From assembly GCA_002502685.1 (NCBI GenBank), contig DAQA01000013.1, forward strand, positions 2,202-66,201: 64,000 nucleotides of DNA, in the 5' to 3' direction. The stretch is from Euryarchaeota archaeon UBA202. Its GTDB lineage: Archaea > Thermoplasmatota > E2 > UBA202. Position 1 is the first letter of the stretch, and each line of letters begins with the position of its first letter. The position numbers were made by a program, and so were the translations under genes. The notes beneath the pieces are model-generated. The model made no database searches. It was given only the letters and a program-made list of their open reading frames with translations, and was not told the origin of the DNA. Below, one piece after another: positions 11,032 through 64,000 of the stretch.

Positions 11032-11513
11032 TATCGTAAATGAATACAAAACTTCCCTTTATAGATGACGGTTATTGTTTCGGGGGAAAATTAGAAGCAA
11101 GAGTGTAGTAGGAAAAATGAAAAAAAAAATTAAATAGAAACCTGTGAAGGGACAGATTGAATGCAACCTGAATAAAAAAAAAAAAAAGACGGTATATACA
11201 AAACATGATATAAGCCAATTGATTCCGGTGTACAGAAAGAACTGAGAGCTATAAGAGAGGAACAAGGAGGAAAAAAAAAACAAAAAAAAAAATCATGGCA
11301 CGGATGGAGATGCTTGTTTCTTGCCTTTTTTTCTCCTTGCCTATTTGTATCAAATTATGATCGGGATTGGTTTCAATTGATATTTTTTGTTTAGTGGATT
11401 GCAACAATAAAATAAAGAGTATGTCCACTATTAATGCCTAAAAAGAGATGAGGATGTATACAGAGGGGGGATGCTATAAAAAGCGATAATGTTTAATAGA
11501 AGGTGAAGGTTTA

Positions 11514-25739: not shown

Positions 25740-26108
25740 TTAGGTTATGGAATAATCCTCAATAATCTTTTCGGAAGACTCCAGAGAGATGAGATTATTT
25801 TTTTCTAGATCATATAAAAATTGTACCAGTCTTTCCTCAAGGTTTTCTTCACCAAAATTATTTTTTATAGACGTAAGGATGTTCTCTACGGAATGATGGC
25901 CATCACAGTATTTCCACACAAATGATCCAAGATGATCAAGATGGAGCAAAATATGGGGATCACGGCGAAGTAGCCGGCAGAATAGTTTCCCAATTGTTCC
26001 CTGAAATTTAGGGACCTTGATGCGGACATGATCTTCCTGACTAAACCATTCTGCTTGCCGGAGAGGAAGAGATGTTTTCTTAATGGAATATAATTTATGC
26101 TTGGGCAT
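25740..26108 (-). CDS. PqqD-family (RRE-like peptide-binding) protein
   Basis: LDHLGSFVWKYCDGHHSVENILTSIKNNFG...RLVQFLYDLEKNNLISL fits the PqqD pattern (LD..G..iW...DG..tv.eI...l...). ATG 26108 overlaps the OPT stop by 14 nt. Confidence 0.5.
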   Translation of the reverse strand: MPKHKLYSIKKTSLPLRQAEWFSQEDHVRIKVPKFQGTIGKLFCRLLRRDPHILLHLDHLGSFVWKYCDGHHSVENILTSIKNNFGEENLEERLVQFLYDLEKNNLISLESSEKIIEDYSIT

Positions 26109-28110
26109 TCCCTTTTCCTTGGGCCTTGGTAAACTCCCGGAGAACAAGATACCCAATCAAAAAGGCAATATAACACCACACTAAAAGACCAGGCCATGAG
26201 GGTGCCACATTGAAAACCTTGAGATCTATACTTCCAATGATAAGAAATGCGGCAATAACACCCATTAATGCCTCTCCTGCAATCAATCCCGCGGTAAACA
26301 AAATTCCTGTTCTTCGCGCCTTTTCCTTGGGATTCACTCCTTTTTGTTTAACCGCCATTTCCCAGTCACCAATTTCTTCTTCATCACTTTGGGGTGACCT
26401 TTTATCAATTATTCTATCAACGACTGCCCGGACACCACCCCCTACAAAAATGGGGATGGTAAGAGAAAAGGGAAGATAGGTACCGATGGCAACCGGGAGA
26501 ACAGGAAGATCCATAAGGATAAGTATGATGGCAAGAACAGCACCAGCAATCACATATGGCCAAATCATTTCACCTCCGAGGACACCACGGACTACACCAG
26601 CCATAAGAAATGCCTGCGGGGCAGGAAGATTGGGGCTTCCAATGGTATAGGCCGAATGTAGAGAGGCAACCACAAGGCCTAATATGGGAGCGGCAGCAAT
26701 GACTCCAACCATCTCGGCAACCTGCATTTTCCACGGTGTGGCACCAATCATATGACCCGAGGACATGGATTGGAGAACATCTCCTGAAATAGCAGCGGCG
26801 CAACACACAACAGCTGCCATTCCAATTACAATGGCCATACCGCCAGCACCAGTGATACCGAAGGCCAATAAAATGAGACTGACAAAGAGAAGAACAGAAA
26901 CAGTGACCCCGGAGATGGGGTTATTAGATGACCCAAGAAGACCCGCCATATAACCTGCTATTGCTGATGCTACAAAGGCTACCAATAAGAGAAGAGCAGC
27001 CATAAATGCAGATAGAGCTACAAGATCAGAAATCCAGGTATATAAAAGAAACATGGGTATCACCATGAGGGCAATGGCCAAAAAAACTTTTTTGTAGGCA
27101 AGATCTTGATTTGTTCTCTTTTTTGACCCTGTATCTCCCCCCCGGATACCCGTGACTGCTTCCTTGATACCACTGACTAAATTATTTCTTAAACTCCAAA
27201 TAGTCCACAGTCCTCCCACGACCATGGCGCCTACACCGATATATCTTACCTGATCACCCCAGATAGTATAAAACCCGCCCAGAAGGGGACCAAGGTTGGC
27301 ATATTGCCCTATAGGTTCAGGTAATCCACTGGCGAGGATAATCAGGGGTGTAATAATCACCCAGCTGATCAGGCCTCCACACAGAACAAAAGATGCAATA
27401 CGGGGACCAATGATATATCCAACACCCAAGAGGGCTGGAGATGAGGCCACCCCGCCATAGAGATATCCTTTACTGGTTTTCCCCAAGATGGTGTATTTTC
27501 CTATGGAGATAATATCTTCGGTAACACCCCGGAAAAGATTAAGGGAAACCTGGCAAAATTTTACCAGAGCGGCCAACAGGGCACCCACCGGCATCCATAT
27601 ACTTTGGCCACCACCTTTATTTGTTTTCTTTTCTCCTCCTTCTCCTACGGTTGTTGTTAATACCGCTGCGACGGCAATACCTTCCGGGAAAGGAAGATCA
27701 GTTTGGACAATTAATGCTCTGCGCAGTGGAACCATCCAGAGTACCCCTAAAATTCCGCCAATTAAGGCAATAACGGTTGTTTCCAGATAATGAATGTCTT
27801 CCCATACCCCTAGAACAACAAGAGCAGGGATGGTAAAGATAATTCCGGCTGCCAGGGCTTCACCGGCTGCTGTTCCCATCATTCCCAGGTTGACTTCAAG
27901 GATGGTTCCTTTAAAGGGTTTAAGTATTGCAAGGGACATGATCGCCCCTGGTATGGCAGCAGAAACCGTCATACCCGCATAAAGACCAAGATACGCATTG
28001 GCGGATCCCATCACTATGGCAAGGAGCATGCCCACGAGAATTGCTTTTAATGTTAATTCGGGGATGATACGCTCTGAGGGTATAAATGACTGAAAATCTT
28101 CCCGGGACAT
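26095..28110 (-). CDS. OPT-family oligopeptide transporter
   Basis: 671 aa polytopic membrane protein. N-terminal ELTLKAILVGMLLAIVMGSANAYLGLYAGMTVSAAIP matches the prokaryotic OPT signature. GGAGG RBS before the ATG. Confidence 0.8.
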   Translation of the reverse strand: MSREDFQSFIPSERIIPELTLKAILVGMLLAIVMGSANAYLGLYAGMTVSAAIPGAIMSLAILKPFKGTILEVNLGMMGTAAGEALAAGIIFTIPALVVLGVWEDIHYLETTVIALIGGILGVLWMVPLRRALIVQTDLPFPEGIAVAAVLTTTVGEGGEKKTNKGGGQSIWMPVGALLAALVKFCQVSLNLFRGVTEDIISIGKYTILGKTSKGYLYGGVASSPALLGVGYIIGPRIASFVLCGGLISWVIITPLIILASGLPEPIGQYANLGPLLGGFYTIWGDQVRYIGVGAMVVGGLWTIWSLRNNLVSGIKEAVTGIRGGDTGSKKRTNQDLAYKKVFLAIALMVIPMFLLYTWISDLVALSAFMAALLLLVAFVASAIAGYMAGLLGSSNNPISGVTVSVLLFVSLILLAFGITGAGGMAIVIGMAAVVCCAAAISGDVLQSMSSGHMIGATPWKMQVAEMVGVIAAAPILGLVVASLHSAYTIGSPNLPAPQAFLMAGVVRGVLGGEMIWPYVIAGAVLAIILILMDLPVLPVAIGTYLPFSLTIPIFVGGGVRAVVDRIIDKRSPQSDEEEIGDWEMAVKQKGVNPKEKARRTGILFTAGLIAGEALMGVIAAFLIIGSIDLKVFNVAPSWPGLLVWCYIAFLIGYLVLREFTKAQGKGNAQA

Positions 28111-28150
28111 GGCATTCCTCCTTTCTATAATCCCACTTAGTTTTATAAAT

Positions 28151-28201
28151 CCATCGTTTTATATACCTGTTGGACAAAACCCCCCAAAAATGGGGGGTTT
28201 T
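28151..28201 (-). promoter_or_regulatory. Palindrome + TATA module, copy A (upstream of the OPT operon)
   Basis: The minus strand reads AAAACCCCCC-ATTTTT-GGGGGGTTTT (28201-28176), then N10, then TATATAAAACGATGG (28165-28151). The TATA centre is ~50 nt upstream of ATG 28110. A near-identical module lies at 36989-37040. Confidence 0.5.
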
Positions 28202-28221
28202 ATAAAACTGCAGCTATAGGC

Positions 28222-28339
28222 AGGGTTGTATTTTTGTGGCATAGGGTTGTTCACAAGGGTTGTTCGCCATGATAACCACCATTGCATCAAGAACAAGCAT
28301 ACCTTGTACAATCATCATTGTTGTTAAGGCTTGTTCACC
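28222..28339. repeat. Four direct copies of a ~12-nt motif AGG[GC]TTGT[TA][CT][AG]C
   Basis: AGGGTTGTAT (28222), AGGGTTGTTCAC (28243-28254), AGGGTTGTTCGC (28256-28267), AGGCTTGTTCAC (28327-28338). Confidence 0.4.
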
Positions 28340-28549
28340 ATAATAATTTGACCCTTATCTTTTAAAAACAACAAACCCTATTCTCATTTAATGGAGAAAA
28401 AAAACAGTTTTCATAGCGGGACTCACATTAGGAATTTTATTATGTTTAATAGGAGCTTTCTTAATGATTTTTGACACCTTCCCTTTATCTGCAAGAATAA
28501 CGATTGTTAAAGTGTCATTTATATTTTCCATCGTCACGAAGGCAACAAC

Positions 28550-28753
28550 ATGGAGCATAAAGATTCCCTGGGTAATGTGGAATTCGATGACTACATGAAA
28601 AACTTTAATAACCTGGTTTTGAACTATTTTCCCAGTAAAAAGGTGACAAATCTTTATTATTGCGGCCACTACACCCATCCAGGGATCGGTGTCCCCGTAA
28701 CTTTGATTTCTTCCCAGTTGGCGACACAAAAAATAGTCGATTCCCTAAAATAA
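28550..28753 (+). pseudogene. C-terminal remnant of a CrtI/amine-oxidase-type FAD oxidoreductase
   Basis: NLYYCGHYTHPGIGVPVTLISSQLATQKI matches the C-terminal FAD-binding block (NLY.xG..t.PG.GvP.v..S) of phytoene-desaturase-family enzymes. Only 67 codons are open, and nothing upstream is recognisably homologous. Confidence 0.45.
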
Positions 28754-28764
28754 AAAACTGTCTT

Positions 28765-29628
28765 TCAGTTAAACAATTTTCCCGTTATTTTCGTCCACAT
28801 CTTACTGATTCTCTCAGCGATCTCTCCCTTTGAGAATTCTATAATAGTCTTTTCATCTACCATGGCGTCAGTTACAACACTATCATATGGTAGCTTTCCT
28901 ACAATCTCGATATTCTTTTTGTTACAGTAGCTCTCAATTTTTTTTGTATTTTCGGTATTGATGTCATATTTATTAATGCACACAACAGCACGAAGATGAA
29001 AATAGTGTGCCACACCCAGGATTCGGTCAAAATCATGTATGGCAGAAAGTGTTGGCTCGGTAACAATCAACACGAGATCAACACCAGTTAATGAGGATAT
29101 CACAGGACAGCCAATACCCGGAGGCCCATCAATAATTATCAGTTCTTTCTTTTTTTCCTGGGCAATCATTTTTGCATTATTTCTTACCACCGTGACTAGT
29201 TTTCCGGATGCCTCCTCGGCAGTGTTTAACCTGGCGTGAGCCATTGGTCCAAATCGTGTCTCAGAAATATAGGCGATACCTGATTCCCGTTCAACCATTG
29301 TGATGGCATCAACAGGGCATACATAGGCACAAACACCGCATCCCTCGCAAGCTTCCGTAATGAGGTTGATGTCTTCATCAATGGCATCAAAATTACACAA
29401 TTCATAACATTTTTTACAACCTATACAGCGGTCCTTGTTAATGTGGGCGATCTTTAATCCATGAAATATTGTCGACTCTAAGACCCGAGGTTTGAGAATT
29501 AGATGCAGATCTGCAGCGTCAACATCGCAATCAGCAAGAACAGCATTGTTTGCAAGAGATGCAAACGCAGCTGTGATCGAGGTTTTTCCTGTTCCCCCTT
29601 TCCCACTGATTACAGTTACTTGTTTCAT
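28765..29628 (-). CDS. MinD/ParA-superfamily P-loop ATPase with inserted 2x[4Fe-4S] ferredoxin domain (COG1149-like)
   Basis: VISGKGGTGKTS P-loop. CIGCKKCYELC and CEGCGVCAYVCP cluster motifs. ATG 29628 overlaps the upstream stop (ATGA). Confidence 0.8.
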   Translation of the reverse strand: MKQVTVISGKGGTGKTSITAAFASLANNAVLADCDVDAADLHLILKPRVLESTIFHGLKIAHINKDRCIGCKKCYELCNFDAIDEDINLITEACEGCGVCAYVCPVDAITMVERESGIAYISETRFGPMAHARLNTAEEASGKLVTVVRNNAKMIAQEKKKELIIIDGPPGIGCPVISSLTGVDLVLIVTEPTLSAIHDFDRILGVAHYFHLRAVVCINKYDINTENTKKIESYCNKKNIEIVGKLPYDSVVTDAMVDEKTIIEFSKGEIAERISKMWTKITGKLFN

Positions 29629-30461
29629 TTCTTTACCTCTGCTTGTATTTTGTTGAAAAGATCGCAAAACCGTTGTCTCCATTCAGGTAACTCAGTCACA
29701 AAGGGGATGCCATTGGAATAGAGATTTGCAATTTTTTCACTATGGGGTATTTTCATTAAAATAGGTATTTTTTCTTTCTGGCAGTAATCCTCAACTTTTC
29801 TATATCCAATACCGTCTCGATTAATAATAACTCCAAACGGTATTTTTAGATACCTGATCACCTCCACGGCTAGTTTAAGATCATGCAGGCCAAAGGGTGT
29901 GGGCTCAGTTACCAGTATACAATAATCTGAACCATTAACCGCTTCAATAACGGGGCAAGACGTACCGGGAGGCGCATCAAGAATGACCCGCTTATCTCTC
30001 GTTATTCTTCGTTTCAAGGCTTTAATTACAGGGATAGCTTGAATTTCGCCCACATTTAATAATCCATGGTAAAAATCAAGTCCATCTGCCATACCATGTT
30101 CAATCAATCCTACAACTCGTTTATCCCAGCTAATAGCATTCCATGGGCACACAAGTTTACATCCTCCACATGAATGGCATAATTCGGGAAAAACAAGAAT
30201 ATCGGTGGGTACAACAGCCAAGGCATTATACATACAGAACTCAGAACATTTTCCACAAAAATCACAAAGAGTCTTATCGATTTTGGGTATATCCACGGAG
30301 ATTTCTTTCCGTTCATGTATAGGTGCATTAAGAAAAATATTTGCATTTGGTTCTTCCACATCACAATCGATAAGCTGTACCCCCTCAAGACTTAATGCAA
30401 GGTTCGTGGCAACTGTTGTTTTTCCTGTTCCCCCCTTCCCGCTGGCAATGGAAATAATCAT
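29625..30461 (-). CDS. MinD/ParA-superfamily P-loop ATPase with inserted 2x[4Fe-4S] ferredoxin domain (COG1149-like), paralog
   Basis: SIASGKGGTGKTT P-loop. CDFCGKCSEFC and CHSCGGCKLVCP. 4-nt overlap with the upstream DUF89 gene. Confidence 0.8.
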   Translation of the reverse strand: MIISIASGKGGTGKTTVATNLALSLEGVQLIDCDVEEPNANIFLNAPIHERKEISVDIPKIDKTLCDFCGKCSEFCMYNALAVVPTDILVFPELCHSCGGCKLVCPWNAISWDKRVVGLIEHGMADGLDFYHGLLNVGEIQAIPVIKALKRRITRDKRVILDAPPGTSCPVIEAVNGSDYCILVTEPTPFGLHDLKLAVEVIRYLKIPFGVIINRDGIGYRKVEDYCQKEKIPILMKIPHSEKIANLYSNGIPFVTELPEWRQRFCDLFNKIQAEVKK

Positions 30462-31321
30462 TTTTGTACCCTGAAAATAAGATCACCTACTTTAGCATCC
30501 ATATCTTGAGCCACCAACGGACATTTTACCAACAGCAAGAAAAAAATCTCTCGTTTCACATTATTTAATGATTCATAATTCCCCTGGCCCTTTGCAATAA
30601 CTAGATCATCATGGTTAAAATGCTCTAAAAACTCCTTGGATACAGTTGTTAGTAGTATACCGGGTGATGATTCAGTATGGCCAGCATCTGCAGAAATAAC
30701 TTTTGCCAAGCTGTCAATCCCTGCTTTTTTTGCATCGGTAATGGTTGCATCATTGAGTATGGGGTTTGCCTTTACCACATAGGTTATCTCTTTATTTCTT
30801 GGTGCAAACTCTTCTAGGAGTAATTTATCAAAGAATATTTCGCCTGCATTGTCAGCAAGGTAAAGAATAGTCTTGGCGTCATTTAGCACTTTTTTAAATC
30901 GTGGATATGCCGTATTTATGATTCTTTTTTTTAGGGAGTCATTAATCATGGTGTTAACATTAAATCTCATCACAGAACCAAAATCTATGGCATTTCCAAC
31001 AATGGCGAGTTTAATGGCGGTAAGAAGAGAATCGTTTGACGTGCGAATCATCTCTTTAAGCTGGGGATACAACTTCTCTGCCATGATATTTGATTGTTTC
31101 TTTACATTCTTGTAGGGATCATGACATTTGGTTATCTTGCGTACAATTGCATGCACCTTTTTTGATGCTACCGGCGGCGGATTGTCAAATGAGAGTGTTT
31201 GAAGATATCTTAAAACTTCTTTCATCACTTGGGTATGCACGGCTTCATCCATCGTTACCATACGTGTCGCCTCTAGCGACTGTCTGATAAAACAAGGTAT
31301 GCAATCAAGGTATGTTTTCAT
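30458..31321 (-). CDS. DUF89 / ARMT1-like damage-control phosphatase family protein
   Basis: MKTYLDCIPCFIRQSLEA start and 287 aa. Collinear similarity to 11789..12664 (for example ...GNAIDFG..., ...ICKGMANYE / IAKGQGNYE...). Confidence 0.75.
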   Translation of the reverse strand: MKTYLDCIPCFIRQSLEATRMVTMDEAVHTQVMKEVLRYLQTLSFDNPPPVASKKVHAIVRKITKCHDPYKNVKKQSNIMAEKLYPQLKEMIRTSNDSLLTAIKLAIVGNAIDFGSVMRFNVNTMINDSLKKRIINTAYPRFKKVLNDAKTILYLADNAGEIFFDKLLLEEFAPRNKEITYVVKANPILNDATITDAKKAGIDSLAKVISADAGHTESSPGILLTTVSKEFLEHFNHDDLVIAKGQGNYESLNNVKREIFFLLLVKCPLVAQDMDAKVGDLIFRVQK

Positions 31322-31354
31322 TTCATATATTTTTTTGACTTATTTATCCATTGA

Positions 31355-31729
31355 TTAATGATGACGATCTCTGAATTCATGTTTGCCACATGCACTATTT
31401 AGAGTTGCTTTTTGAAGCGTACCCTGTTGAAACATGGTTATTGCATCACGCACTGTTCCAGAAGCTCCAATATAAACCTCGATACCTAAATTTTCAAACA
31501 AACTGATGGCGCGTCTTCCTAATCCTTGGCAGATCATCGCATTCACTCCTTCTTTTGCCATAATTTCGGGCGGGTCTCCCTGTCCTCCCATATGATGGCT
31601 CGTATTGGGAATGACCGTTACATCATCGGTTTCAAGATCAACAATAGTATAGGTAGGAACTCTTCCAAAATGTTCACCTACGCTATCATCTAAACCCTGT
31701 TGATCTATTGTAGGTATACATACTTTCAT
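31355..31729 (-). CDS. NifX/NifB-C-terminal-type (dinitrogenase FeMo-cofactor-binding fold) protein
   Basis: MKVCIPT....VGEHFGRVPTYTIVDLE...VNAMICQGLGRRAISLFENLGIEVY is the typical Nitro_FeMo-Co family pattern. 124 aa. Confidence 0.8.
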   Translation of the reverse strand: MKVCIPTIDQQGLDDSVGEHFGRVPTYTIVDLETDDVTVIPNTSHHMGGQGDPPEIMAKEGVNAMICQGLGRRAISLFENLGIEVYIGASGTVRDAITMFQQGTLQKATLNSACGKHEFRDRHH

Positions 31730-32124
31730 TGACGTTTCCCTCCGTTTACTGCTTTTTTGTCATCTCTTCCAAAGTGACTATCCACCGTGGCACTCTCAGT
31801 TTTTTTAAGATTATCAGCTTTATATTGTTCAACAGCATCTTTTACCCTACCGCTTACGCCAGTAATCACTTCTATATTTGCTGCTTTCAATGTTTGAAAA
31901 GCATTTGGTCCAATATTTCCCGTAATTATACACTTGGCTTTTTGTTGTGCTACCCTTTGGGCAGCTTGGATTCCTGCCCCCCCCATTGCCAAGGCACTCT
32001 CATTTGATATTGCTTCTACATTCATGTCATCCGTATTGATAAACAAAAAATAGGCGCATCTTCCAAATCGAGGATCTATTTGTGCATCCAGATTTTTTCC
32101 TGTTGATGTTATACATATTTTCAT
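31726..32124 (-). CDS. NifX/NifB-C-terminal-type cofactor-binding-fold protein, paralog
   Basis: MKICITSTGKNLDAQIDPRFGRCAYFLFINTDD...IITGNIGPNAFQTLKAANIEV. A GGTGA RBS precedes ATG 32124. The longer track ORF start (32205) is not supported. Confidence 0.8.
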   Translation of the reverse strand: MKICITSTGKNLDAQIDPRFGRCAYFLFINTDDMNVEAISNESALAMGGAGIQAAQRVAQQKAKCIITGNIGPNAFQTLKAANIEVITGVSGRVKDAVEQYKADNLKKTESATVDSHFGRDDKKAVNGGKRQ

Positions 32125-32168
32125 TTCATTCACCTTTGTTATGTTCCCCCACTTTTTTTTTATTTTTT

Positions 32169-32360
32169 TTATGCTCTTGTCATGGGTGCTCCGCATTTGG
32201 GACATTTTCTGTTATAGCATGGCTCACTAAGTCTATGAGGCTCTTTATGTCCACAGTTGGAACACAGGCATTCGCCACCAGGACCCATACCTACTCCCCC
32301 GCCCATGCCTCCTCTTCTTCCTCTGCCTCCGCCTAATCCTTTACTTCTTTCCTGCATCAT
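32169..32360 (-). CDS. Small Gly/Arg-rich protein with C-terminal zinc ribbon
   Basis: ..SKGLGGGRGRRGGMGGGVGMGPGGECLCSNCGHKEPH....CPKCGAPMTRA. Possible starts are GTG 32369 (overlaps the Mrp stop), ATG 32360 and ATG 32357. Confidence 0.55.
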   Translation of the reverse strand: MMQERSKGLGGGRGRRGGMGGGVGMGPGGECLCSNCGHKEPHRLSEPCYNRKCPKCGAPMTRA

Positions 32361-32365
32361 ATATT

Positions 32366-33184
32366 TCACTTCCCTTTTTTATTCACGTTTTTTTCAATCT
32401 TTTCCACTATTTTGGTAAATGCATTCGCTGCATCTGATGTAGCATTCTTTATAATAAATGGTTCACCCGAGTCACCTGTATCTACAATTTTTGGGTCGAG
32501 AGGGACTTTTCCTAGGTACGGCACCTGAAGATCCCTAGATGCCTTCAGCCCGCCACCGCTTTTAAAGATATCAACAGACTTGCCACAATGGGGGCAGGTA
32601 AACCCACTCATATTTTCAATAATCCCCAGAACAGGGATATTCATCTTCTTGACAAAATTGATAGATTTACGGACACTTACCAATGCCACATCTTGCGGAG
32701 TTGTTACTATTATTGCCCCATCGCACTGGGGAATAAGCTGTGCAACGGTTAATGGCTCATCGCCTGTACCTGGAGGGAGATCAACAATTAGATAATCAAT
32801 AGCACCCCAGTTTACATCACCAATAAATTGTTTCATTGCCCCCATCTTCAAGGGGCCACGCCAAATAACAGGTGCATCTCTTTCTGATAATAGAAAGCCT
32901 ATCGACATGACCGTCAAATTCGGGGACACGACAATAGGATTAAAACCCTTCTCGGAAGCCGTGATTTTTTTATCTTCCAGACCTAGTATTTTGGGGATAC
33001 TTGGTCCGTGAAAATCACTGTCTAACAGTCCAACCTTATTCCCTTTTTCAGAGAGTGCAAATGCAAGGTTGGCAGACACTGTACTTTTTCCAACGCCTCC
33101 CTTTCCACTTAATACCATAATCGTATGCTTTATATGGCTCAGGGTTTGAGTAATTTTAGTGTTGTCATATTCTTTTTTTTCCAT
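32366..33184 (-). CDS. Mrp/NBP35/ApbC-family Fe-S cluster carrier ATPase
   Basis: VLSGKGGVGKSTVSANLA deviant Walker A, CPHCG cluster-ligand motif, VDLPPGTGD. 272 aa. Confidence 0.85.
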   Translation of the reverse strand: MEKKEYDNTKITQTLSHIKHTIMVLSGKGGVGKSTVSANLAFALSEKGNKVGLLDSDFHGPSIPKILGLEDKKITASEKGFNPIVVSPNLTVMSIGFLLSERDAPVIWRGPLKMGAMKQFIGDVNWGAIDYLIVDLPPGTGDEPLTVAQLIPQCDGAIIVTTPQDVALVSVRKSINFVKKMNIPVLGIIENMSGFTCPHCGKSVDIFKSGGGLKASRDLQVPYLGKVPLDPKIVDTGDSGEPFIIKNATSDAANAFTKIVEKIEKNVNKKGK

Positions 33185-33263
33185 AGTTACCTCTCATGGC
33201 ATTATGGCATGGCTTCAGCTATATATTTGTTATTCTATTAAAAAATTGGGGGGAAAAGAAAAA

Positions 33264-33293
33264 GAGCTTGTTTATAGGTGTGTTAACAAGCTC
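33264..33293 (-). terminator. Hairpin + T-tract after the DUF5320 gene
   Basis: Perfect 9-bp stem GAGCTTGTT/AACAAGCTC (33264-33272 / 33285-33293). On the minus strand it is followed by TTTTTCTTTT. It lies 5 nt after the stop at 33298. An AT-rich TATA-like stretch follows before the Mrp start. Confidence 0.5.
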
Positions 33294-33297
33294 CTTT

Positions 33298-33651
33298 TTA
33301 CTTTTCTTTGGAGAGTTCTTGGAGTCTGTCTTGTACAGCTTTGACCTCGTTTTCTAGGTCCTTGACCATATTTTTTAGGTAGGTTTTCTCATCCTCTTCA
33401 CTAGGCTCTGGATATATTCCGGGGTAATATGGTGCAGGGTCATAGGATGGATACATACTTCTCCACCAGAATCCTCTGCCACGTCCTAAACCTCTGCCCC
33501 ATCCTCTGCCAAATCCGCGTCCAAAACCAAATCCTCTTCCTCGGGGGAATCCTTTGGTATAACCGGGGTTATTATATCCTGCACAGTATCCAAGGGCTCT
33601 CCCTGTCATGGATCCACGACCTTCGGGTCCTGTTCTATCTCCACCTGGCAT
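33298..33651 (-). CDS. DUF5320-family protein (disordered RG/FG-rich N-terminal part, C-terminal coiled coil)
   Basis: MPGGDRTGPEGRGSMTGRALGYCAG start typical of DUF5320, then GFPRGRGFGFGRGFGRGWGRGLGRGRGFWW. C-terminal ..YLKNMVKDLENEVKAVQDRLQELSKEK. Confidence 0.7.
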   Translation of the reverse strand: MPGGDRTGPEGRGSMTGRALGYCAGYNNPGYTKGFPRGRGFGFGRGFGRGWGRGLGRGRGFWWRSMYPSYDPAPYYPGIYPEPSEEDEKTYLKNMVKDLENEVKAVQDRLQELSKEK

Positions 33652-33655
33652 ATTC

Positions 33656-33928
33656 TTATTTCACCTCTTTACTTTCTTTTTTTATTTCTTCAATTCTTTT
33701 TTCTATTTTGTCTAGGTCACTTTTAATGAACTGTTTTTCCCGTTCTAGAATATGGAGCTCGTCCTCGGGATGTATCCTGGGATAAGGCATGAATTCCATT
33801 GGCGGATAGTCCATTGGTGGGTATCCAAATGGTGCCCATCCGGGTATTTTGGGTGCGTGATAGCGGTACCACTGTCTGTATCCTGCATTTTTTTTCGTCT
33901 CTGATTTACTGTTTTTATTAGTCATCAT
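33656..33928 (-). CDS. DUF5320-related small protein (Pro/aromatic-rich N-terminal part, C-terminal coiled coil)
   Basis: WAPFGYPPMDYPPMEFMPYPR, then EDELHILEREKQFIKSDLDKIEKRIEEIKKE. It has the same two-part layout as the next gene and sits 4 nt upstream of it. Confidence 0.5.
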   Translation of the reverse strand: MMTNKNSKSETKKNAGYRQWYRYHAPKIPGWAPFGYPPMDYPPMEFMPYPRIHPEDELHILEREKQFIKSDLDKIEKRIEEIKKESKEVK

Positions 33929-34003
33929 TTTTATTACGTATATATTATTATCTATATAAAGTTTTTTGTTAAATTTTTAATAATTAATCGCATATATATC
34001 ATT

Positions 34004-34315
34004 ATGCCGAGATATCGACGTGGTAGGGGCAGGTGTCCCAGGTGGGTGGCAAGATTACCCTATGCGGATTTTTTTAAACCTGCGGGTATTCCCTTGATGA
34101 ATCTTGAGATCACAACTTTGTTGATGGAGGAGTTTGAGGCTCTCCGTTTGGTGGACTCGGAGGGCTTGGAGCAGAGTGAGGCGGCGCGTCGTATGGGTGT
34201 GTCAACAAAGACGTTTTGGAATGACTTGAAATCGGCACGGAAAAAAATAGCTGATGCGTTGGCATATGGGCAAGGAATACAAATTCAAGGAGGGAGTTAT
34301 AGGATCCAAGAATGA
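34004..34315 (+). CDS. DUF134/UPF0251-family putative HTH regulator
   Basis: RGRGRCPRWVARLPYADFFKPAGIP...EEFEALRLVDSEGLEQSEAARRMGVSTKTFWNDLKSARKKIADAL matches the UPF0251 pattern with a sigma-70 region-4-like HTH. Divergent from the cluster. Confidence 0.8.
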   Translation: MPRYRRGRGRCPRWVARLPYADFFKPAGIPLMNLEITTLLMEEFEALRLVDSEGLEQSEAARRMGVSTKTFWNDLKSARKKIADALAYGQGIQIQGGSYRIQE

Positions 34316-34372
34316 TGATCCTCTCAAGGAAATTAGTGGGTCCTGATAAGGTATAGGTAATAAAGAAGGTGG

Positions 34373-34403
34373 AACCGCATGTGTGTGGTTTAATTTTTTT
34401 TTT
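34373..34403 (+). terminator. Hairpin + T10 tract downstream of the DUF134 gene
   Basis: AACCGCA-tgtg-TGTGGTT (one G-T wobble), followed by taa and T10 (34394-34403). Confidence 0.55.
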
Positions 34404-34567
34404 ATGGCGTTGTTATTGTCATCTAATCATGGTTATCAACTGTTCTTTGGAGAGAATAGCCGGGTTTACCGGGTAGGGCGTATTGCTACTGCATAGGAAA
34501 AAGTTACTTAGGAAAATTAAGACATAATGAGGGGATAAGGATGATGAGGTTATCTTTTTTTTATTGT

Positions 34568-34906
34568 CTAATTTTTTATGTCTTTTTTTATGCTTTGGAT
34601 ATTCCTCTGTGATATAACCACCATTGCTACCCAGACAAATAGGATGGCGATAGTCATGGTTACGCCAATTGTTGCCATCTCTTGTAACATAACAGGGATT
34701 TCTGCAGGATTCTGCATGGCGGTCAAGAATGGTGGATAAAGCACAACTTCTTGATGTGCTATATGTTCAACAGCAAGCATTATGACGCCTCCCCACAACA
34801 TCACGTTTAACCATACGATTTTCAATCTTTCAGGTATTTTTTTCCTGAATAGTGTTGTTACGATCGCAAGACTCATTGGAGCTATAAAGCATGCCATTTT
34901 ATTCAC
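34568..34906 (-). CDS. Small 3-TM membrane protein (paralog pair, member 2)
   Basis: LNVMLWGGVIMLAVEHIAH resembles LSLMLWGTSIMIMVDHVLG of the upstream gene. 8-nt overlap with it. Confidence 0.45.
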   Translation of the reverse strand: MNKMACFIAPMSLAIVTTLFRKKIPERLKIVWLNVMLWGGVIMLAVEHIAHQEVVLYPPFLTAMQNPAEIPVMLQEMATIGVTMTIAILFVWVAMVVISQRNIQSIKKDIKN

Positions 34907-35192
34907 CTCTTACAATTTTTTCTTTTGGACGAGAAATTATCAAGATAATCTCCCAGATTATTAAAATCGGTATGATCATGGCAATTCCTAAAAGTGTTCC
35001 ATTGGTTATTAGTCCATCGGTTTGTACCTCAAGGAATTCTCCACCGTCATAGCCGAGAACATGATCCACCATGATCATAATTGAAGTTCCCCAAAGCATC
35101 AAACTTAAAAAATCCAGTTTATAGATCTTGGGTTTTATATACCAAATGGCAGTCACCGCGATTGCTGCGATTACTGTTGTTACAAGCCACAT
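34899..35192 (-). CDS. Small 3-TM membrane protein (paralog pair, member 1)
   Basis: 97 aa with the same topology and shared motif as 34568..34906. Confidence 0.45.
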   Translation of the reverse strand: MWLVTTVIAAIAVTAIWYIKPKIYKLDFLSLMLWGTSIMIMVDHVLGYDGGEFLEVQTDGLITNGTLLGIAMIIPILIIWEIILIISRPKEKIVRGE

Positions 35193-35557
35193 ATCATTCT
35201 TTCCATACCAATTTTTTTAAACACTTCGAATAGTCATTTCTTATTTAAAAATTTTGGGTAAAAACGAATAAAAAGCATATGGCCAATCATTGGCAAAAGG
35301 AAAACAAAACAAGTTTACTAAAAAATTTTGCAGTACGGTATTAATTGACTAAACACCCATTACCATCAAGGTAGATCTAGGTCTGTTTTTTTTTTCTTTG
35401 GAAAAAAAGTTTTTTGAATCAGGTTGATCCCTAGTCATTTTTTTTCGATTGTTTCGATTCACCAATCTGTACGGGAAAAATTCTTAAAACGGGAAATTAT
35501 TTTTCATTAAAGCACAACAATAAGGATTTATGGTGTAATGGCTTCATTACCATACAG

Positions 35558-36031
35558 CTAGGCTGTCTTTTTTTGTAATAGTTTTAAATGTTCCAGTATA
35601 TCTTTTGCATGGCCTGCAACTGTAACCTTAGGCCAGATATGTGCAATTCTACCTGTTGGATCAATAAGAAATGTGGTGCGAACTGCGCCCCAGAATTCGC
35701 GTCCAAACATTTTTTTTTGGCTTCCAAACCTCATAGGCTGTCATTACCTCGTGTTTGCTGTCGCTCAATAAAGTAATGCTGAGGTCCTTTTTTCGGTAAA
35801 CGAACAATGGCTTTCAGGGCTGTCCGGGCTTATGCCAAGTATCACAGCATTGTGTTGTTCAAAGCTCTTCTTATCCCGTGTAAACTGGATTGCTTCAAGG
35901 GAACAACCAGGTGTGTTATCCTTTGGATAGAAATATAATACCACCCATTTCTCCCTAAATTCTGTAAGACAGACATCATGATTGTCTTTATCGGGTAGAC
36001 AAAATTCAAACGCTTTTTCTCCAACCTTCAT
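35558..36031 (-). pseudogene. bcp: Bcp-type peroxiredoxin (AhpC/TSA family) interrupted by two homopolymer frameshifts
   Basis: Frame A gives MKVGEKAFEFCLPD...YFYPKDNTPGCSLEA...SPDSPESHCSFTEK. After the A6 run (plus T6 35788-35793) the conserved sequence continues in another frame: KDLSITLLSDSKHEVMTAYEVWKPKK. After the A9 run (plus T9 35710-35718) it returns to frame A: MFGREFWGAVRTTFLIDPTGRIAHIWPKVTVAGHAKDILEHL, with stop at 35558. Confidence 0.75.
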
Positions 36032-36212
36032 TCAAATCACCATCATTGTTTCTATCTGAATAAGTCCGTTCTTTATATGTTTTTACCAGGCTTTATTCTA
36101 GTGGGAAAAAAAGTTTCAAGTACAGTCATGAAGACATTTTTGAAAATGAATCCAAGATTAAAAAAAAAACTGCTGCATAAAGAGTGATATATAAATGATT
36201 TGTTGATGTTAC

Positions 36213-36797
36213 TTGGCAATCGATATGGCAAAGCGGGTCAGGATTCATGATTTGGAAGTGGAATACAAGGTAATCCATCGTGATATACGGTGTCCCAGAC
36301 TTGAATTTAAAACTGGTGGACTACAAGTTATTCTTCCTAGGGATTATGGGGATTCTGAAGAGTTGATTGATAGGCACAGGAAATGGATTTATAGGACAGC
36401 TACAGTGATACATGATGCATTAAAGCAGTCTTCCAAGAGGAAGCTAAATCTAGAGAGGACAGATGAAGAATTTAAGGGATTGGTATCCTCCTATGTGAAT
36501 GTTTTCTCAGGGAAATTAGGGGTGTATCTCAATAAAATCACTTTTCGGAGAATGAAGTCTAGATGGGGGAGTTGCTCAAGTTACAAGAAGAATATAACCC
36601 TCAATACGCACCTACGGTATTTACCAGACCACATCATTGGATACGTGGTTCTCCATGAGTTAACCCATCTTTTCGAGAAGGGGCATAATAAGGGGTTCTG
36701 GCAGAGAATTTCAAAGGTATATCCAGATTACAGGGATATTAAGAAGGAACTCTTAGCGTACTGGTATCTACTCCATGATAATGGACTGCTGGAGTAA
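36213..36797 (+). CDS. DUF45/YgjP-like (M48-related) zinc metallopeptidase family protein
   Basis: RWGSCS... and YVVLHELTHLFEKGHNKGFW (HExxH...H..FW), the DUF45 signature. TTG start per the track. Confidence 0.75.
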   Translation: MAIDMAKRVRIHDLEVEYKVIHRDIRCPRLEFKTGGLQVILPRDYGDSEELIDRHRKWIYRTATVIHDALKQSSKRKLNLERTDEEFKGLVSSYVNVFSGKLGVYLNKITFRRMKSRWGSCSSYKKNITLNTHLRYLPDHIIGYVVLHELTHLFEKGHNKGFWQRISKVYPDYRDIKKELLAYWYLLHDNGLLE

Positions 36798-36988
36798 AAA
36801 ATATTTTCAAAACCGTTACTACGTTAATAGGCACCTTAGCAGTTTATATCAAAAAAAAATTTCAACATCCTATAATGTTTCTAATTTGTAACGAATTACG
36901 ATACTAAATATAATCCAAAAAAGAGATAGTTTTAACGATTTTGCCTCTAATAAGTGTAAAATGATTAATGTAATGATTTCCATTTAAC

Positions 36989-37040
36989 AAAACCCACCCA
37001 AAATGGAGGGTTTTATTCCACTAGATATATAAAACGATGG
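36989..37040 (+). promoter_or_regulatory. Palindrome + TATA module, copy B
   Basis: AAAACCCACC-CAAAAT-GGAGGGTTTT (36989-37014), then N11, then TATATAAAACGATGG (37026-37040). The 15-mer is identical to copy A and the stems differ only at one paired position. Confidence 0.45.
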
Positions 37041-37411
37041 TTTAACCAGTAAAATCGTCTCCCAAATCGGTGTTTTAAGAACCGAATTGAAAAAGTGCGT
37101 ATTTCCTAAATAATATAATTGGGCTTGATGAAAATTAAAAATCATATGCAAAAGGGAAATAAGGTGGTCTGAATTAGAATATTATATATTATTGATTTGA
37201 AGAGGGTTTAGGATAAGTTTGGGGTAATGTAGATATAAAGATAAGAAAAATACTAAACTAGTTTTTTTTAATATCATTTCATGATTTTTATAGGGGATGT
37301 GGCTATTAGGGTTAATCCCACAATAGCAATCGTTATTATCCCCCTTCCTGCGATAAAAAATATTGCAGGGACAGCCAGATAGATGAATGGAGAGTTTCAT
37401 TCAAAACTTTT

Positions 37412-37984
37412 ATGTACCAAATAGTAATACCCAATCAAATGTATGAAGTAAGATTCCATGGGCGTGGGGGACAAGGAGCTGTTACTGCCGCGCGTCTGTT
37501 GGCAGATGCTGCTTTTCGTGAAGGAAAAGAAGTGCAGTCATTTCCCATTTTTGGTGTTGAACGCCGGGGGGCACCTGTGGCTGCATTTACCCGGATAGAT
37601 GATAAACCAATCGACATAAAAACACAGATCTATGAACCAGATGTAGTTATTGCGCTTGATTCAACTCTTATCGGTGTGATAGATGTAGCGGACGGATTGA
37701 AAGATAATGGAAAAATAGTGATAAACTCTAAAAAAAAACCAGCTGATTTTAAGTTTGGGGATACACGGGTCTATACCCTTGATGCAACGGAAATCGCCAC
37801 CAAACATGGCTTGGGAACAAAAACTAATCCAATCATAAATACCGCTATTCTGGGTGCTTATGCAAAGGTTATTGGCAATATTGGTATGGCTGCTATTGAA
37901 CAATCTATTGAAAATAATGTCCCTATAAAAAAAGAGGAAAATAAAAATGCGGCACGGGAAGCATATCAGGTTATGGAGGCATAA
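37412..37984 (+). CDS. porG: 2-oxoacid:ferredoxin oxidoreductase gamma subunit (pyruvate/2-ketoisovalerate type)
   Basis: VRFHGRGGQGAVTAARLLA...FPIFGVERRGAPV. Gene order gamma-delta-alpha-beta. Substrate specificity is not decidable by eye. Confidence 0.8.
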   Translation: MYQIVIPNQMYEVRFHGRGGQGAVTAARLLADAAFREGKEVQSFPIFGVERRGAPVAAFTRIDDKPIDIKTQIYEPDVVIALDSTLIGVIDVADGLKDNGKIVINSKKKPADFKFGDTRVYTLDATEIATKHGLGTKTNPIINTAILGAYAKVIGNIGMAAIEQSIENNVPIKKEENKNAAREAYQVMEA

Positions 37985-38245
37985 ATGAAAATTACCATAG
38001 GAGCTATTAATGACAAACCGGGTTCATCAAAAAATTATAAGACAGGAAGCTGGCGTACACTTAAACCGGTTATTAATCTTGAGAAATGTAAAAAATGTTG
38101 GTTGTGCAAGCAACTCTGTCCCGAAGGATGTATAACAAAAAAAGAAGAGGGACCCCAGATCAACTATGATTACTGTAAGGGATGCGGTATCTGTGCTCAT
38201 GAATGCACCTTTGATGCCATAATAATGGAGCTTGAAGAGAGGTAA
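37985..38245 (+). CDS. porD: 2-oxoacid:ferredoxin oxidoreductase delta subunit (2x[4Fe-4S])
   Basis: CKKCWLCKQLCP and CKGCGICAHEC motifs. 86 aa. Starts one nt after the porG stop. Confidence 0.8.
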   Translation: MKITIGAINDKPGSSKNYKTGSWRTLKPVINLEKCKKCWLCKQLCPEGCITKKEEGPQINYDYCKGCGICAHECTFDAIIMELEER

Positions 38246-38249
38246 TGAG

Positions 38250-39428
38250 ATGACAAAAATGACTATTATGGGAAATATGGCTACGGCGCTGGGCGCGAAA
38301 CTATGCCGCCCCCATGTTATACCGGCCTATCCTATTACGCCATCGACACTTTTCCCTGAAAAAATATCGGAATTTATTGCCAATGGCGAGATGGATGGAG
38401 AAATGATCCGAGTGGAATCAGAACATTCAGCCATGTCGGCAGCTATTGGCGCCTCGGCTACAGGGGCACGGGTCTGTACAGCTTCGGCAAGCCAAGGTAT
38501 TGCCCTTATGCATGAAATGCTTTTTATTGCCTCAGGTATGCGTCTTCCTATTGTTATGGCTGTGGGTAACCGGGCGTTGTCTGCACCCATTAATATTTGG
38601 TGTGATCATCAGGATACCATTTCTGAACGTGATGTGGGATGGCTTCAATTCTATGCTGAAAAAAATCAGGAGGGACTGGATTTAATGATTCTTGCTTTCA
38701 AGATCTGTGAAGATAAACGGGTGCTGTTACCGGGCATGGTGGGCATCGATGCATTTGTTTTGACACATACTGTTGAAGGCGTAGATGTACCTGACCAAAA
38801 ACTTGTTGATGATTTTCTTCCCCCCTATAAACCTGAGAAGTATCTTGATGCCCGTACCCCTATCACTTTTGGTTCCTTTGGTACACCTGAATTTTATCAG
38901 GAATTCAAATATGCCCAAGTGAAAGCCATGGAAGAATCAGAGAAAGTCATTGATGAGGCTTTTCGGGAATATAAAAAGGTTTTTGGGCGAACCTATCAAA
39001 AAATAACGCCGTATCGATGTGAGGATGCAGACATGGTCATATTGACTTTGGGATCGATGAGTGGTACAGCTCGTGCCGCAGTGGATATTCTGCGAGAGGA
39101 GGGAAAGAAAGCAGGATGCATAAAAATGACAGTGTACCGTCCTTTTCCAGGAAAGGAACTTATAGATGTATCAAAGAATGCCAAAGTCATTGCGGTTCTT
39201 GACCGGGATATCACACCAGGGCTTGGGGGAGCATTATACGCTGATGTTGCTGCTCAATTTGTCAATAGAACTGCACATCCCGTGATTTTGAACTATATTC
39301 TTGGATTAGGGGGACGCGATATTGTCATCAATGATTTCAAAGAAATTTATGATAAGTCCCATCAGGCCCTTGAGAAAGGGATACAGAATCCTGTTGAATG
39401 GATAAATCTGAATAAGGAGATATTGTGA
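38250..39428 (+). CDS. porA: 2-oxoacid:ferredoxin oxidoreductase alpha subunit
   Basis: MGNMATALGAKLCRPHVIPAYPITPST...ESEHSAMSAAIGASATGARVCTASASQG is typical of the alpha subunit. ATG 38250 is preferred to TTG 38232. Confidence 0.85.
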   Translation: MTKMTIMGNMATALGAKLCRPHVIPAYPITPSTLFPEKISEFIANGEMDGEMIRVESEHSAMSAAIGASATGARVCTASASQGIALMHEMLFIASGMRLPIVMAVGNRALSAPINIWCDHQDTISERDVGWLQFYAEKNQEGLDLMILAFKICEDKRVLLPGMVGIDAFVLTHTVEGVDVPDQKLVDDFLPPYKPEKYLDARTPITFGSFGTPEFYQEFKYAQVKAMEESEKVIDEAFREYKKVFGRTYQKITPYRCEDADMVILTLGSMSGTARAAVDILREEGKKAGCIKMTVYRPFPGKELIDVSKNAKVIAVLDRDITPGLGGALYADVAAQFVNRTAHPVILNYILGLGGRDIVINDFKEIYDKSHQALEKGIQNPVEWINLNKEIL

Positions 39429-62244: not shown

Positions 62245-62743
62245 AGGAAAAATCAATGACATAGAAAAAGCTCTAGGGATTACACAACAATATGAAAAAA
62301 AATACGGGGTAGCACTACTCTTATTAAATCCCCGTCTCGTTTATGGCAAAGATCATATTGAGTCAGCGGTAAAACATGCCATTCGAGCATTCCGGGAAAA
62401 AAGAAACACCAGTCATTCCCTGTCATTGGAGATACTTTTATATGCCTCAGGTAAAACACAACTAAAAGACGCCATTGAATTCATGGGAATAAAAAGAACA
62501 GGGCCGTACGCAATTATTTGTGTGGGCAAAACCAGAATAAGTGGTTCAGAAAATATGATACCTAAGGGAATTGACAAGTTAGTCACAGACCTTAAACTTG
62601 ATAGCGATAATTCCGTTCTTGATGGAAGCAAAGAGATACTGTATCGTTTTGGAATTACTGACACCGAATTAAAAACAGTAGATAAATCTATGTATCAGGA
62701 TTTAATTCTGGAAAGAGTGGCCATGGTTGATGTGTTTAAATAG
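62219..62743 (+). CDS. cgi121: KEOPS complex subunit Cgi121-like
   Basis: ~174 aa. ...HAIRAFREKRNTSHSLSLEILLYASGKTQLKDAIEFMGIK fits the Cgi121 pattern (A...F.....N.......E.L...SG..Q...AI...G). Confidence 0.6.
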   Translation: MELKIICCKGKINDIEKALGITQQYEKKYGVALLLLNPRLVYGKDHIESAVKHAIRAFREKRNTSHSLSLEILLYASGKTQLKDAIEFMGIKRTGPYAIICVGKTRISGSENMIPKGIDKLVTDLKLDSDNSVLDGSKEILYRFGITDTELKTVDKSMYQDLILERVAMVDVFK

Positions 62744-62816
62744 CCCGGATGGGGTAGTTTGGATATCCTAGAGCCCTGCGGAGGCTCAGACTCGGGTTCG
62801 AATCCCGATCCGGGCG
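62743..62816 (+). tRNA. tRNA-Arg (anticodon GCG)
   Basis: Hand-folded cloverleaf. Acceptor GCCCGGA/TCCGGGC. D-arm with A14, G18 G19 and A21. Anticodon stem GAGCC/GGCTC with loop CTGCGGA (GCG at 62778-62780). T-arm TCGGG-TTCGAAT-CCCGA. Discriminator G. No encoded CCA. Followed by a T-tract. Confidence 0.85.
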
Positions 62817-62855
62817 TTTTTTTACTAGTAAAAATTTATATACTTTCTCGATATA

Positions 62856-63458: not shown

Positions 63459-64000
63459 CCCTTGTGACAGATGACCAATTAATCCGACGGTTTCTTACAG
63501 ATTGCAAAATCAGGGGACTGACTGACAAAACCATCGAAGACTATAAGGGAAACGTCAAAATATTTCACCAATTCCTAGAAAAACAAGACAAAGACTTCCT
63601 TAACGCCACCAAGGATACCATCCGAGAATTTGTAAAATATTTGCGATTTGACAGAAAAGTTAGCCAACGGAGGATAAAAAACTATTTTTCTGGCTTATCA
63701 ACTTTCTATGAATTTCTCATCTATGAAGGACTAACGGAGACAAACAAGATTCTTCAGGTTAGAAAAAGATATCTTACAAGTTATAAAAAGGATAATGGAG
63801 GGAACCAAAGAAAACTCATCTCCATTGAAAGCATGGCACACTTCATCAATTCCATTATGGATTCAAGGGACAAAGCAACAGCCTTGCTTATGGCAAAGAC
63901 AGGAATCAGGCGAGGAGAACTCATAAGGATAAACGTGGATGATATAAATTGGCAGGATATGAGCATTACATTACAACCAGCCGCAAAGAGGAGTAACCGA
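63455..64000 (+). CDS. Tyrosine recombinase / phage-type integrase (3' end outside the window)
   Basis: N-terminal SAM-like core-binding domain (FLTDCKIRGLTDKTIEDYKGNVKIFHQFL...YFSGLSTFYEFL), then the start of the catalytic domain with TGIRRGELIRINVDDI (first conserved Arg). Confidence 0.8.
   Translation, partial: MTLVTDDQLIRRFLTDCKIRGLTDKTIEDYKGNVKIFHQFLEKQDKDFLNATKDTIREFVKYLRFDRKVSQRRIKNYFSGLSTFYEFLIYEGLTETNKILQVRKRYLTSYKKDNGGNQRKLISIESMAHFINSIMDSRDKATALLMAKTGIRRGELIRINVDDINWQDMSITLQPAAKRSNR

Follow-up and report, generated by a model that had tools for sequence, protein, structure and literature searches.

The locus described here carries, twice within about 9 kb, a palindrome followed by a TATA-like 15-mer, once directly before the gene of an OPT-family oligopeptide transporter and once upstream of porGDAB. 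The question is what this repeated sequence does, or did. According to the original prediction, it is an operator joined to a promoter and shared by a small regulon. The window, meaning the whole stretch of DNA that was analysed (64 kb), comes from a metagenome-assembled genome (MAG) of the Thermoplasmata, and its contig carries prefoldin and other archaeal genes. Since the host is an archaeon, reading the sequence in terms of archaeal promoters is legitimate. A sigma-70 promoter was also considered and rejected, as the host is archaeal and the matches from the scan fell below shuffle expectation.

The Two Copies of the Unit

Both copies have the letters that had been reported for them. The first (U1, 28148–28202) lies on the minus strand, directed towards the OPT gene, and matches the nhmmer profile with E=1.4e-16. 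It consists of a perfect palindrome, AAAACCCCCC-AAAAAT-GGGGGGTTTT (28176–28201), a spacer of 10 nt (28166–28175) and the 15-mer, read as CCATCGTTTTATATA at 28151–28165. The second (U2, 36990–37043, plus strand; nhmmer E=3.8e-16) has an imperfect palindrome, AAAACCCACC-CAAAAT-GGAGGGTTTT (36989–37014), an 11-nt spacer and the 15-mer TATATAAAACGATGG (37026–37040). Exact copies of the 15-mer number two in the 64 kb, with no others, and the palindrome pattern was found twice against 0.01 occurrences expected in a window of this size. The two sites are a pair of homologous units of ~55 nt, each composed of palindrome, spacer and TATATAAAACGATGG, far above chance, with ~80–84% identity over 55 nt.

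Regarding the details of this likeness, three earlier statements need adjustment. The stems do differ at a single paired position, as had been noted, but the change from C-G to A.A breaks the pair instead of compensating. The surroundings of the two sites had been called unrelated; by pairwise alignment and nhmmer, ~55–62 nt are homologous, a stretch that takes in the spacer (TCCA..AG) as well as a few bases on the 5' side of the stem. Finally, the order of palindrome, spacer and 15-mer is the same at both sites, as claimed, but the loops have opposite orientations relative to the 15-mer (ATTTTT versus CAAAAT).

The genomic settings of the two copies are as follows. At copy 1 the 15-mer lies 40 nt from the OPT ATG (28110). 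Copy 2 has a YgjP-like gene on one side and porGDAB on the other; 371 nt separate it from the porG ATG, and this stretch includes a T8 run (37262–37269). The genes between U1 and U2 form an ordinary chromosomal Fe-S/NifX-like/Mrp cluster. By eye, a third, inverted and partial copy seemed to be present near bcp (~36085–36112, 12/14 positions); it was undetected by the nhmmer profile at E<=10 and is not claimed.

Conservation of the Unit among Relatives

For comparison, OPT orthologue loci at 94–95% protein identity were fetched (L005, which is the same as L026, and L006), L014 and L017 were added by a pattern scan of metagenome contigs and L027 by an integrase search. All relatives are metagenome contigs, and the resulting set holds eight unit copies, window and relatives together. 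Orthologous units were found upstream of OPT in L026/L005, L006, L014 and L027.

Among the eight copies, the spacer and the 15-mer are near-invariant, with a mean pairwise identity of 88%, and the block TTTTATTCCACTAGATATA[T/G]AAAACGATGG is identical in six of them; the non-coding DNA of these strains is otherwise ~77–88% identical. The palindrome has a mean pairwise identity of 66%, with no compensatory or symmetric changes among the eight copies. Six palindromes fold at -9.6 kcal/mol or better with differing sequences, that of L017 by means of G.U pairs. The value of -21 kcal/mol is reached only by copy 1 of the window, five copies lie at ~-10 to -14 and two at ~-3, the dyad being degenerate in L006 (-2.7) and in U2 of L014 (-3.4 kcal/mol). 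Weak conservation, lack of compensation and two degenerate copies together are not the pattern expected of an operator or of a selected RNA stem. Aligning orthologous promoters had been proposed as a check, and in the comparison of the copies the dyad is lost in L006 and in U2 of L014.

The variable T/G position of the 15-mer is concerted within genomes: both window copies have T and both L014 copies have G. Identity within a genome combined with difference between genomes is expected if the copies exchange, and this counts in favour of a recombination-site (att) reading of the unit.

Exact, pattern and nhmmer profile searches of the 64-kb window and the fetched loci detected no third copy. 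The 15-mer with its shared flanks gave three chance bacterial matches only in the genome contig collection, so the representative of the species is either absent from it or divergent. The metagenome pattern scan returned 17 matches, of which L014 and L017 alone are homologous and the rest are unrelated coding sequence; the collection is incomplete and its negatives are weak, as the JGI contigs L026 and L006, which fit the pattern, were not returned. In the viral collection neither the unit nor the non-coding block that follows U2 (E-left, see below) had a match, and Rfam, at gathering and permissive thresholds, gave nothing for either. A small open reading frame was considered as well and rejected, as frames through the unit (GGFIPLDIENDG in L014) hit a stop codon in the window.

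The Integrase at the OPT Border

U1 is a border of synteny. On its OPT side, the order OPT-PqqD-hyp-AspRS-prefoldin-Memo is kept in all relatives, and on the other side the DNA is strain-specific, which counts for the att reading. The OPT gene itself (26095–28110, minus strand; Pfam PF03169, E=4.9e-79) is the chromosomal flank of U1, and the relatives of its protein are Thermoplasmata/Thermoplasmatota MAG proteins.

The strain-specific side begins with an integrase. In L026/L005 and L027, an intact tyrosine integrase of 347/345 aa lies upstream of OPT and stops 8 nt short of the palindrome, again in favour of the att reading. The other strains retain remnants of it: a C-terminal piece of 50 aa abuts U1 in L014 (E=1.6e-22), and L017, L006 and the window keep 30–40 nt beside U1. 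The remnant in the window (28203–28245, minus strand, ending in ..PQKYNPAYS*) abuts the palindrome; its homology at the DNA level to the end of the L026 integrase gene begins at 28238, and by tblastn 8 of 11 residues at 28213–28245 are identical to the C-terminus of the L027 integrase (E=1.3, weak when taken alone). Besides small ORFs and a second integrase of smaller size, the 6 kb upstream in L026 also encode an RHH/CopG-like protein and an AAA+ protein bearing a Cdc6-lid domain. RHH, Cdc6-lid AAA+ and two integrases are element hallmarks, and by this gene content the L026 insert is a plasmid-like integrative element.

A module recurs in Thermoplasmatota elements, comprising a small integrase-family ORF (175–180 aa), an ORF of ~100–120 aa and then an integrase of 345–351 aa at the element edge (L026 4096–6040; L028 7112–9044; L032 5959–11056). 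The small integrase directly precedes the ~100–120-aa ORF in L026 and L028–L030, and four other ORFs intervene in L032. In the window, beside the integrase remnant and in what is left of the element interior, four close copies of GAACAA(C/G)CC / ATACAACCC (minus strand reading) occupy 28250–28345; they could be arm-type or iteron-like sites, and no homologue of them was found in the relatives.

The position of the palindrome with respect to the integrase gene also bears on what had been offered as alternatives to the regulon, namely a terminator-promoter cassette or a miniature repeat. The hairpin starts 8 nt after the integrase stop in L026 and L027, an intrinsic-terminator-like geometry, and a consensus terminator scan flags 28180–28197 on both strands, with a T run of only T4. 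As the hairpin follows the integrase stop in relatives and the unit is linked to a mobile element, these alternatives came nearer to the truth than the regulon: the terminator-promoter geometry and the tie of a repeat to mobile DNA are borne out, but the repeat is not one of the MITE type. The G+C palindrome may be seen as a possible 3' hairpin of the integrase gene, being the sequence right after its stop, and not as an operator.

The 8.8-kb Inversion

The relative L031, whose porG is 91% identical, clarifies how copy 2 came to lie before por. Its positions 4589–4736 correspond to window 28643–28496 in reverse and run unbroken into L031 4731–6518, which corresponds to window 37332–39118. In L014, the equivalent of window 30682–36084 is oriented opposite relative to OPT. 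The two alignments together show that the window carries an inversion of ~28496–37337, and un-inverting this segment brings back the gene order of L014 and L031. The inverted segment (28496–37337) contains a LuxE fragment, the Fe-S cluster gene set, bcp, the YgjP-like gene, U2 and E-left. Its left junction, AATAACGATTG (28496–28506, plus strand), and its right junction, CAATCGTTATT in plus-strand letters (37327–37337, minus strand), are the two arms of a perfect 11-bp inverted repeat. Immediately beyond lies the ancestral upstream region of por (37338–37411, plus strand), homologous to L031 and containing GATAAAAAATATT.

In L031, por has no unit, and its divergent neighbour is a LuxE-like gene, the start of which (~31 codons) is found at 28550–28643 on the plus strand of the window. 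Since the inversion is strain-specific and por of L031 lacks the unit, the position of copy 2 upstream of por is a secondary accident. A mis-assembly is unlikely, as seven contigs carry an identical OPT protein, six of them grouped with one that was examined and mostly having the same neighbouring genes. With the inversion undone, U1 and U2 become direct repeats separated by ~0.75 kb that includes E-left and the integrase stub, a reduced form of the arrangement in L014.

Regarding the mechanism, the inversion junctions (ATAACGATTG) and the right junction of an insertion in L017 (ATAACGATGG) are similar to AAAACGATGG, the core of the unit. The pattern AWAACGATKG, which was defined post hoc, has five matches in the window against 0.77 expected, four of the five at this locus. 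This likeness between junctions and core suggests the involvement of a recombinase in the inversion. As far as the account of Cossu et al. (2017, PMC5495485), cited in PMC8371274, goes, recombination in the Int-pTN3 inversions of Thermococcales depends on stretches of identity no shorter than ~104 bp, and experiments demonstrated the activity. With that case, so far as it is described there, the present one shares an archaeal chromosomal inversion with an endpoint inside integrated-element DNA; it differs in its 11-bp junction repeat and in that a role of the integrase would follow solely from the resemblance to the unit core.

Further features of this locus were noticed. An ORF of 67 aa (28550–28753, plus strand) fuses the ~31 LuxE-like N-terminal codons, as in L031, to an unrelated C-terminus (..GHYTHPGIGVP..), pointing to a further deletion at this rearranged locus. 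The bcp/peroxiredoxin gene (35567–36031, minus strand) has an internal out-of-frame stretch compared to the intact 157-aa orthologue of L014, and is either a pseudogene or affected by assembly indels. In L017, two tandem copies of ~215 nt (1182–1576) lie within the insert of 1.26 kb that separates the unit from OPT.

The Units as Probable Recombination Sites of a Decayed Element

The arrangement that best displays the relation of the two copies is that of L014, where OPT is followed by U1, the integrase remnant, 3.9 kb with other genes, E-left, U2, bcp and the Fe-S cluster genes. U1 (4342–4396) and U2 (8427–8481) are here direct repeats with 83.6% identity over 55 nt, sharing an identical block of 30 nt, or 32 of 33 nt when bases past the 15-mer are counted. 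Between them lie 4.1 kb with E-left at one end and the integrase remnant at the other, and U2 adjoins bcp, as would suit a pair of att sites. In the 3.9-kb interior the genes look ordinary (csp, HEAT-like, ASCH-like) and hallmarks of an element are lacking, which counts against that reading.

Across the loci, three combinations of flanks were observed: integrase, unit and OPT at five loci; bcp side, unit and E-left in L014 and in the window; and integrase remnant, unit and E-left in L017. These match three of the four att configurations, which would be attR, attL and an attP-like form, respectively. The attP-like joint in L017 spans the 30-nt repeat, and an assembly chimera is possible there in principle. 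A related element in L032, with an integrase 42% identical, has this geometry too, although its sequence is different, which supports the att reading: 35 nt after the integrase stop, the host NAC gene carries a 23-nt repeat at its 5' end, and the second copy of this repeat is located 8 kb off at the other element boundary, beside a YjeF-type gene, the two sharing an exact core of 17 nt. The L032 element (~8 kb) has these direct repeats, GAGAWWATATAACATTTGCATAT, at 3113–3135 and 11091–11113; it also carries seven iteron-like 40-nt tandem repeats (4431–4713) and the same pair of small and large integrases.

An intact element with the unit at both ends was not seen; the L026 contig ends before the left end, with no second copy within 6 kb. 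A clean empty site (bcp, unit and OPT with no integrase remnant) was not found among the few relatives sampled, the nearest being L006, where DNA from upstream of bcp lies ~90 nt from U1 and OPT and ~30 nt of the integrase remnant are still present. Around the 48%-identical integrase of L028/L029, no att repeats were found in the fetched DNA.

Taken together, it seems slightly more probable than an even chance that the units are the relic attL and attR of a decayed plasmid-like integrated element, flipped apart by the 8.8-kb inversion. The history would then be as follows. In an ancestor of the present lineage of Thermoplasmata, an integrative plasmid-like element with tyrosine recombinases, having the ~55-nt unit as its att repeat, would have entered the chromosome at a point flanked by bcp and OPT, the integration giving two direct copies. 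U1 would be attR, with the integrase 3' end on its left and the OPT leader on its right, and U2 would be attL, with the bcp side on its left and the element end, E-left, on its right. The crossover would most likely have taken place in the near-invariant spacer and 15-mer, with the core A(A/T)AACGAT(G/T)G, on which the integrase may have acted. In the window strain the element would have decayed, leaving ~40 nt of the integrase and ~0.4 kb of interior. The later inversion between the 11-bp inverted repeats would have flipped U2 together with the chromosomal gene block, so that the copies now face apart with 8.8 kb between them and U2 stands upstream of por by accident. The att sites, if real, are old, given that the copies are only ~80–84% identical over 55 nt.

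Possible Promoter Activity and the E-left Block

The recombination-site reading leaves room for promoter activity, and the two can coexist, as the TATA-like part of the core may double as the OPT promoter. A fuller alternative, which appears unlikely, regards the unit as a promoter module: at copy 1 the TATA of the 15-mer would drive the OPT operon, and at copy 2 a non-coding RNA of ~140–200 nt, E-left; the hairpin would insulate from, or terminate, upstream transcription, and a segmental duplication would account for the two copies, with the integrase being incidental.

At OPT, the spacing of the 15-mer as a TATA box had been proposed, and this is plausible in that TATATAAA is conserved and lies 47 nt from the ATG, a distance leaving a leader of ~24 nt with GGAGG; moreover, the 15-mer is near-invariant in all eight copies. 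However, a second conserved TATA-like box, TTTATAAAAC (28140–28149, minus strand), is nearer to the ATG, at ~31 nt. In most genes of the window an A/T box ends 21–26 nt before the ATG, and they are apparently leaderless; the TTTATAAAAC box is closer to this usual distance than the 15-mer, yet still outside it. Of six strains, five have TATA[T/G]AAAACGATGG upstream of OPT, the exception being L017, where it is displaced by 1.26 kb, and the TTTATAAAAC box is kept in all OPT orthologues, L017 included. There, the OPT gene retains adjacent to it only ACGATGG and the TTTATAAAAC box, the remaining unit lying ~1.3 kb upstream. In addition, the invariant AAAACGATGG is downstream of the TATA, where promoters are usually unconstrained. 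The 15-mer may serve as an OPT promoter, but the data do not require it.

In comparison with the archaeal BRE/TATA promoter, TATATAAA matches a TATA box well and lies far enough from the OPT start for a short leader with GGAGG; unlike such promoters, there is no clear purine-rich BRE upstream, the strongest conservation (AAAACGATGG) is 3' of the box, and a rival box is closer to the ATG. On the minus strand at 28140–28165, the 15-mer and the proximal OPT box form a tandem-like pair, TATAAAACGA-TGG and TATAAAACTAAGTGG, 18 nt apart, possibly the trace of the original target site beside the element-borne copy.

At copy 2, the promoter module draws on E-left, a conserved non-coding block of ~140 nt (37041–37182, plus strand) that directly follows U2 in every strain having it. 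By blastn, it is 78–81% identical to L017 486–628 and L014 8426–8297, and the genes downstream of it differ between strains, as would be expected of a self-contained transcription unit. Its constant tie to U2 also means that copy 2 travels with E-left and not with por. Oligo-T termination is established for archaea, and the T8 run between E-left and por (37262–37269, plus strand) is a likely termination signal for any U2 transcript. The structure signal in E-left is weak, with two compensatory pairs in a predicted hairpin, which would speak for an RNA, but a covariation term of ~0 from three sequences. No conserved ORF was found, as indels break the frames in the window, L017 and L014, and a C/D-box sRNA was rejected, TGATGA...CTGA (37125–37175) not being conserved in L017 or L014. 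E-left could be an element-end RNA or an attP arm region. The promoter module by itself leaves the integrase adjacency, the synteny boundary and the concerted T/G change unexplained.

A combined proposal joins both lines. The integrase family would recognise a promoter-like core, A(A/T)AACGAT(G/T)G, and would have remodelled the chromosome at secondary core-like sites, giving the 8.8-kb inversion and the 1.26-kb insertion of L017; the element end would be a portable hairpin-plus-TATA cassette, acting as promoter for the host OPT operon and for an element-encoded RNA of ~140 nt (E-left). This proposal is tentative and, taken whole, rather unlikely.

Other Explanations

Within the att reading, the strand exchange could be placed in the palindrome instead of the spacer and 15-mer. 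Inverted arms around an asymmetric centre are the architecture of tyrosine-recombinase core sites such as dif, loxP and FRT, and the 10-6-10 palindrome, with its two inverted 10-bp arms and 6-bp asymmetric centre, resembles them, the 15-mer then being a flank or arm. The palindrome is directly 3' of the integrase gene, and its central 6 bp are flipped in two of the eight copies (AAAAT versus ATTTT). Yet loop flipping also arises spontaneously, which is a known behaviour of palindromes, and no other part of the unit is as poorly conserved as the arms. Moreover, the L014 copies differ strongly in the palindrome and are identical in the spacer and 15-mer, which makes exchange likelier in the latter, and the junctions of L017 and of the window inversion are at AACGAT-type sequence and not at the C6/G6 arms. 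Strand exchange in the palindrome is therefore considered improbable.

Equally improbable is that the units are a neutral leftover, duplicated intergenic DNA or a miniature repeat which never had a site-specific function. Two copies only per genome would suit this, as would the local abundance of gene fragments (LuxE, an FAD-reductase gene, the frameshifted bcp and integrase stubs), but the 30-nt block is identical in six of the eight copies in strains whose other non-coding DNA is ~77–88% identical. The MITE version was rejected: there are only two copies, neither terminal inverted repeats nor target duplications were found, the inverted arrangement in the window is due solely to the inversion, and the L014 copies are direct repeats ~4 kb apart.

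The operator, a palindrome binding a dimeric archaeal transcription factor upstream of BRE/TATA with OPT and por as a small regulon, is very doubtful, and the comparison with relatives has already largely refuted it. In its favour, the OPT TATA-like box does have a perfect 10-bp inverted repeat 10 nt upstream, with a similar set 9 kb away and the inverted repeat persisting in six of the eight copies. Against it, half-sites are 66% identical among orthologous copies against 88% for the spacer and 15-mer, the dyad is essentially gone in L006 and L014-U2, copy 2 of the window has the A.A clash, no further copy was found in the accessible sequence, and copy 2 came to lie near por through the strain-specific inversion, por of L031 having the LuxE-like divergent neighbour and no unit.

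Relation to Known Systems and Meaning

Archaeal elements with intergenic att sites are on record, the provirus PsiM100 of Methanothermobacter wolfeii being an example (review 'Archaeal tyrosine recombinases', PMC8371274), which lends support to the att reading. With the PsiM100 type, the present locus has in common an integrase at the element edge, short direct repeats at the junctions, seen here for the decayed insert of L014 and, once the inversion is undone, for the window, an A/T-rich intergenic target that is not a tRNA gene, and an element that decays in place. It differs in its uncultured Thermoplasmata host, in a repeat made of a G+C palindrome and a TATA-like box directly before a host gene, and in the paired small-plus-large integrase module, whose activity here would be a prediction from its sequence.

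There are also parallels to the tRNA-targeting islands and integrative plasmids of bacteria and archaea: the integrase lies beside the rebuilt target, a displaced partial copy is found at the far end, and the insertion point is a hot spot for strain-specific DNA. Unlike those, the target here is neither a tRNA gene nor an RNA recognised by Rfam, and it is the upstream region of a gene that is rebuilt. The window itself has a region of the tRNA kind elsewhere, where tRNA-Arg(GCG) (62743–62816) is followed by an ORF of 200 aa and, from ~63545 to the window end (64000), by an open frame that looks like a tyrosine recombinase's N-terminal half (..TGIRRGEL..); 62743–64000 is probably a second element, integrated at a tRNA gene.

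For the annotation of such genomes, the case would show, if the att reading is right, that a relic att pair and one inversion can look like a shared regulatory motif, and that motifs in two copies need a synteny check in relatives before a regulon is called. The locus itself is most likely an ordinary genomic scar, and the current view of archaeal regulation is unchanged by it. To our knowledge, almost no mobile elements have been characterised in this Thermoplasmata lineage group. If the att reading is true, the locus would be a worked example of site-specific integration into the upstream region of a gene in an uncultured Thermoplasmata lineage, and it would provide a candidate att core together with a matching integrase module, composed of a small integrase, an ORF of ~110 aa and a large integrase.
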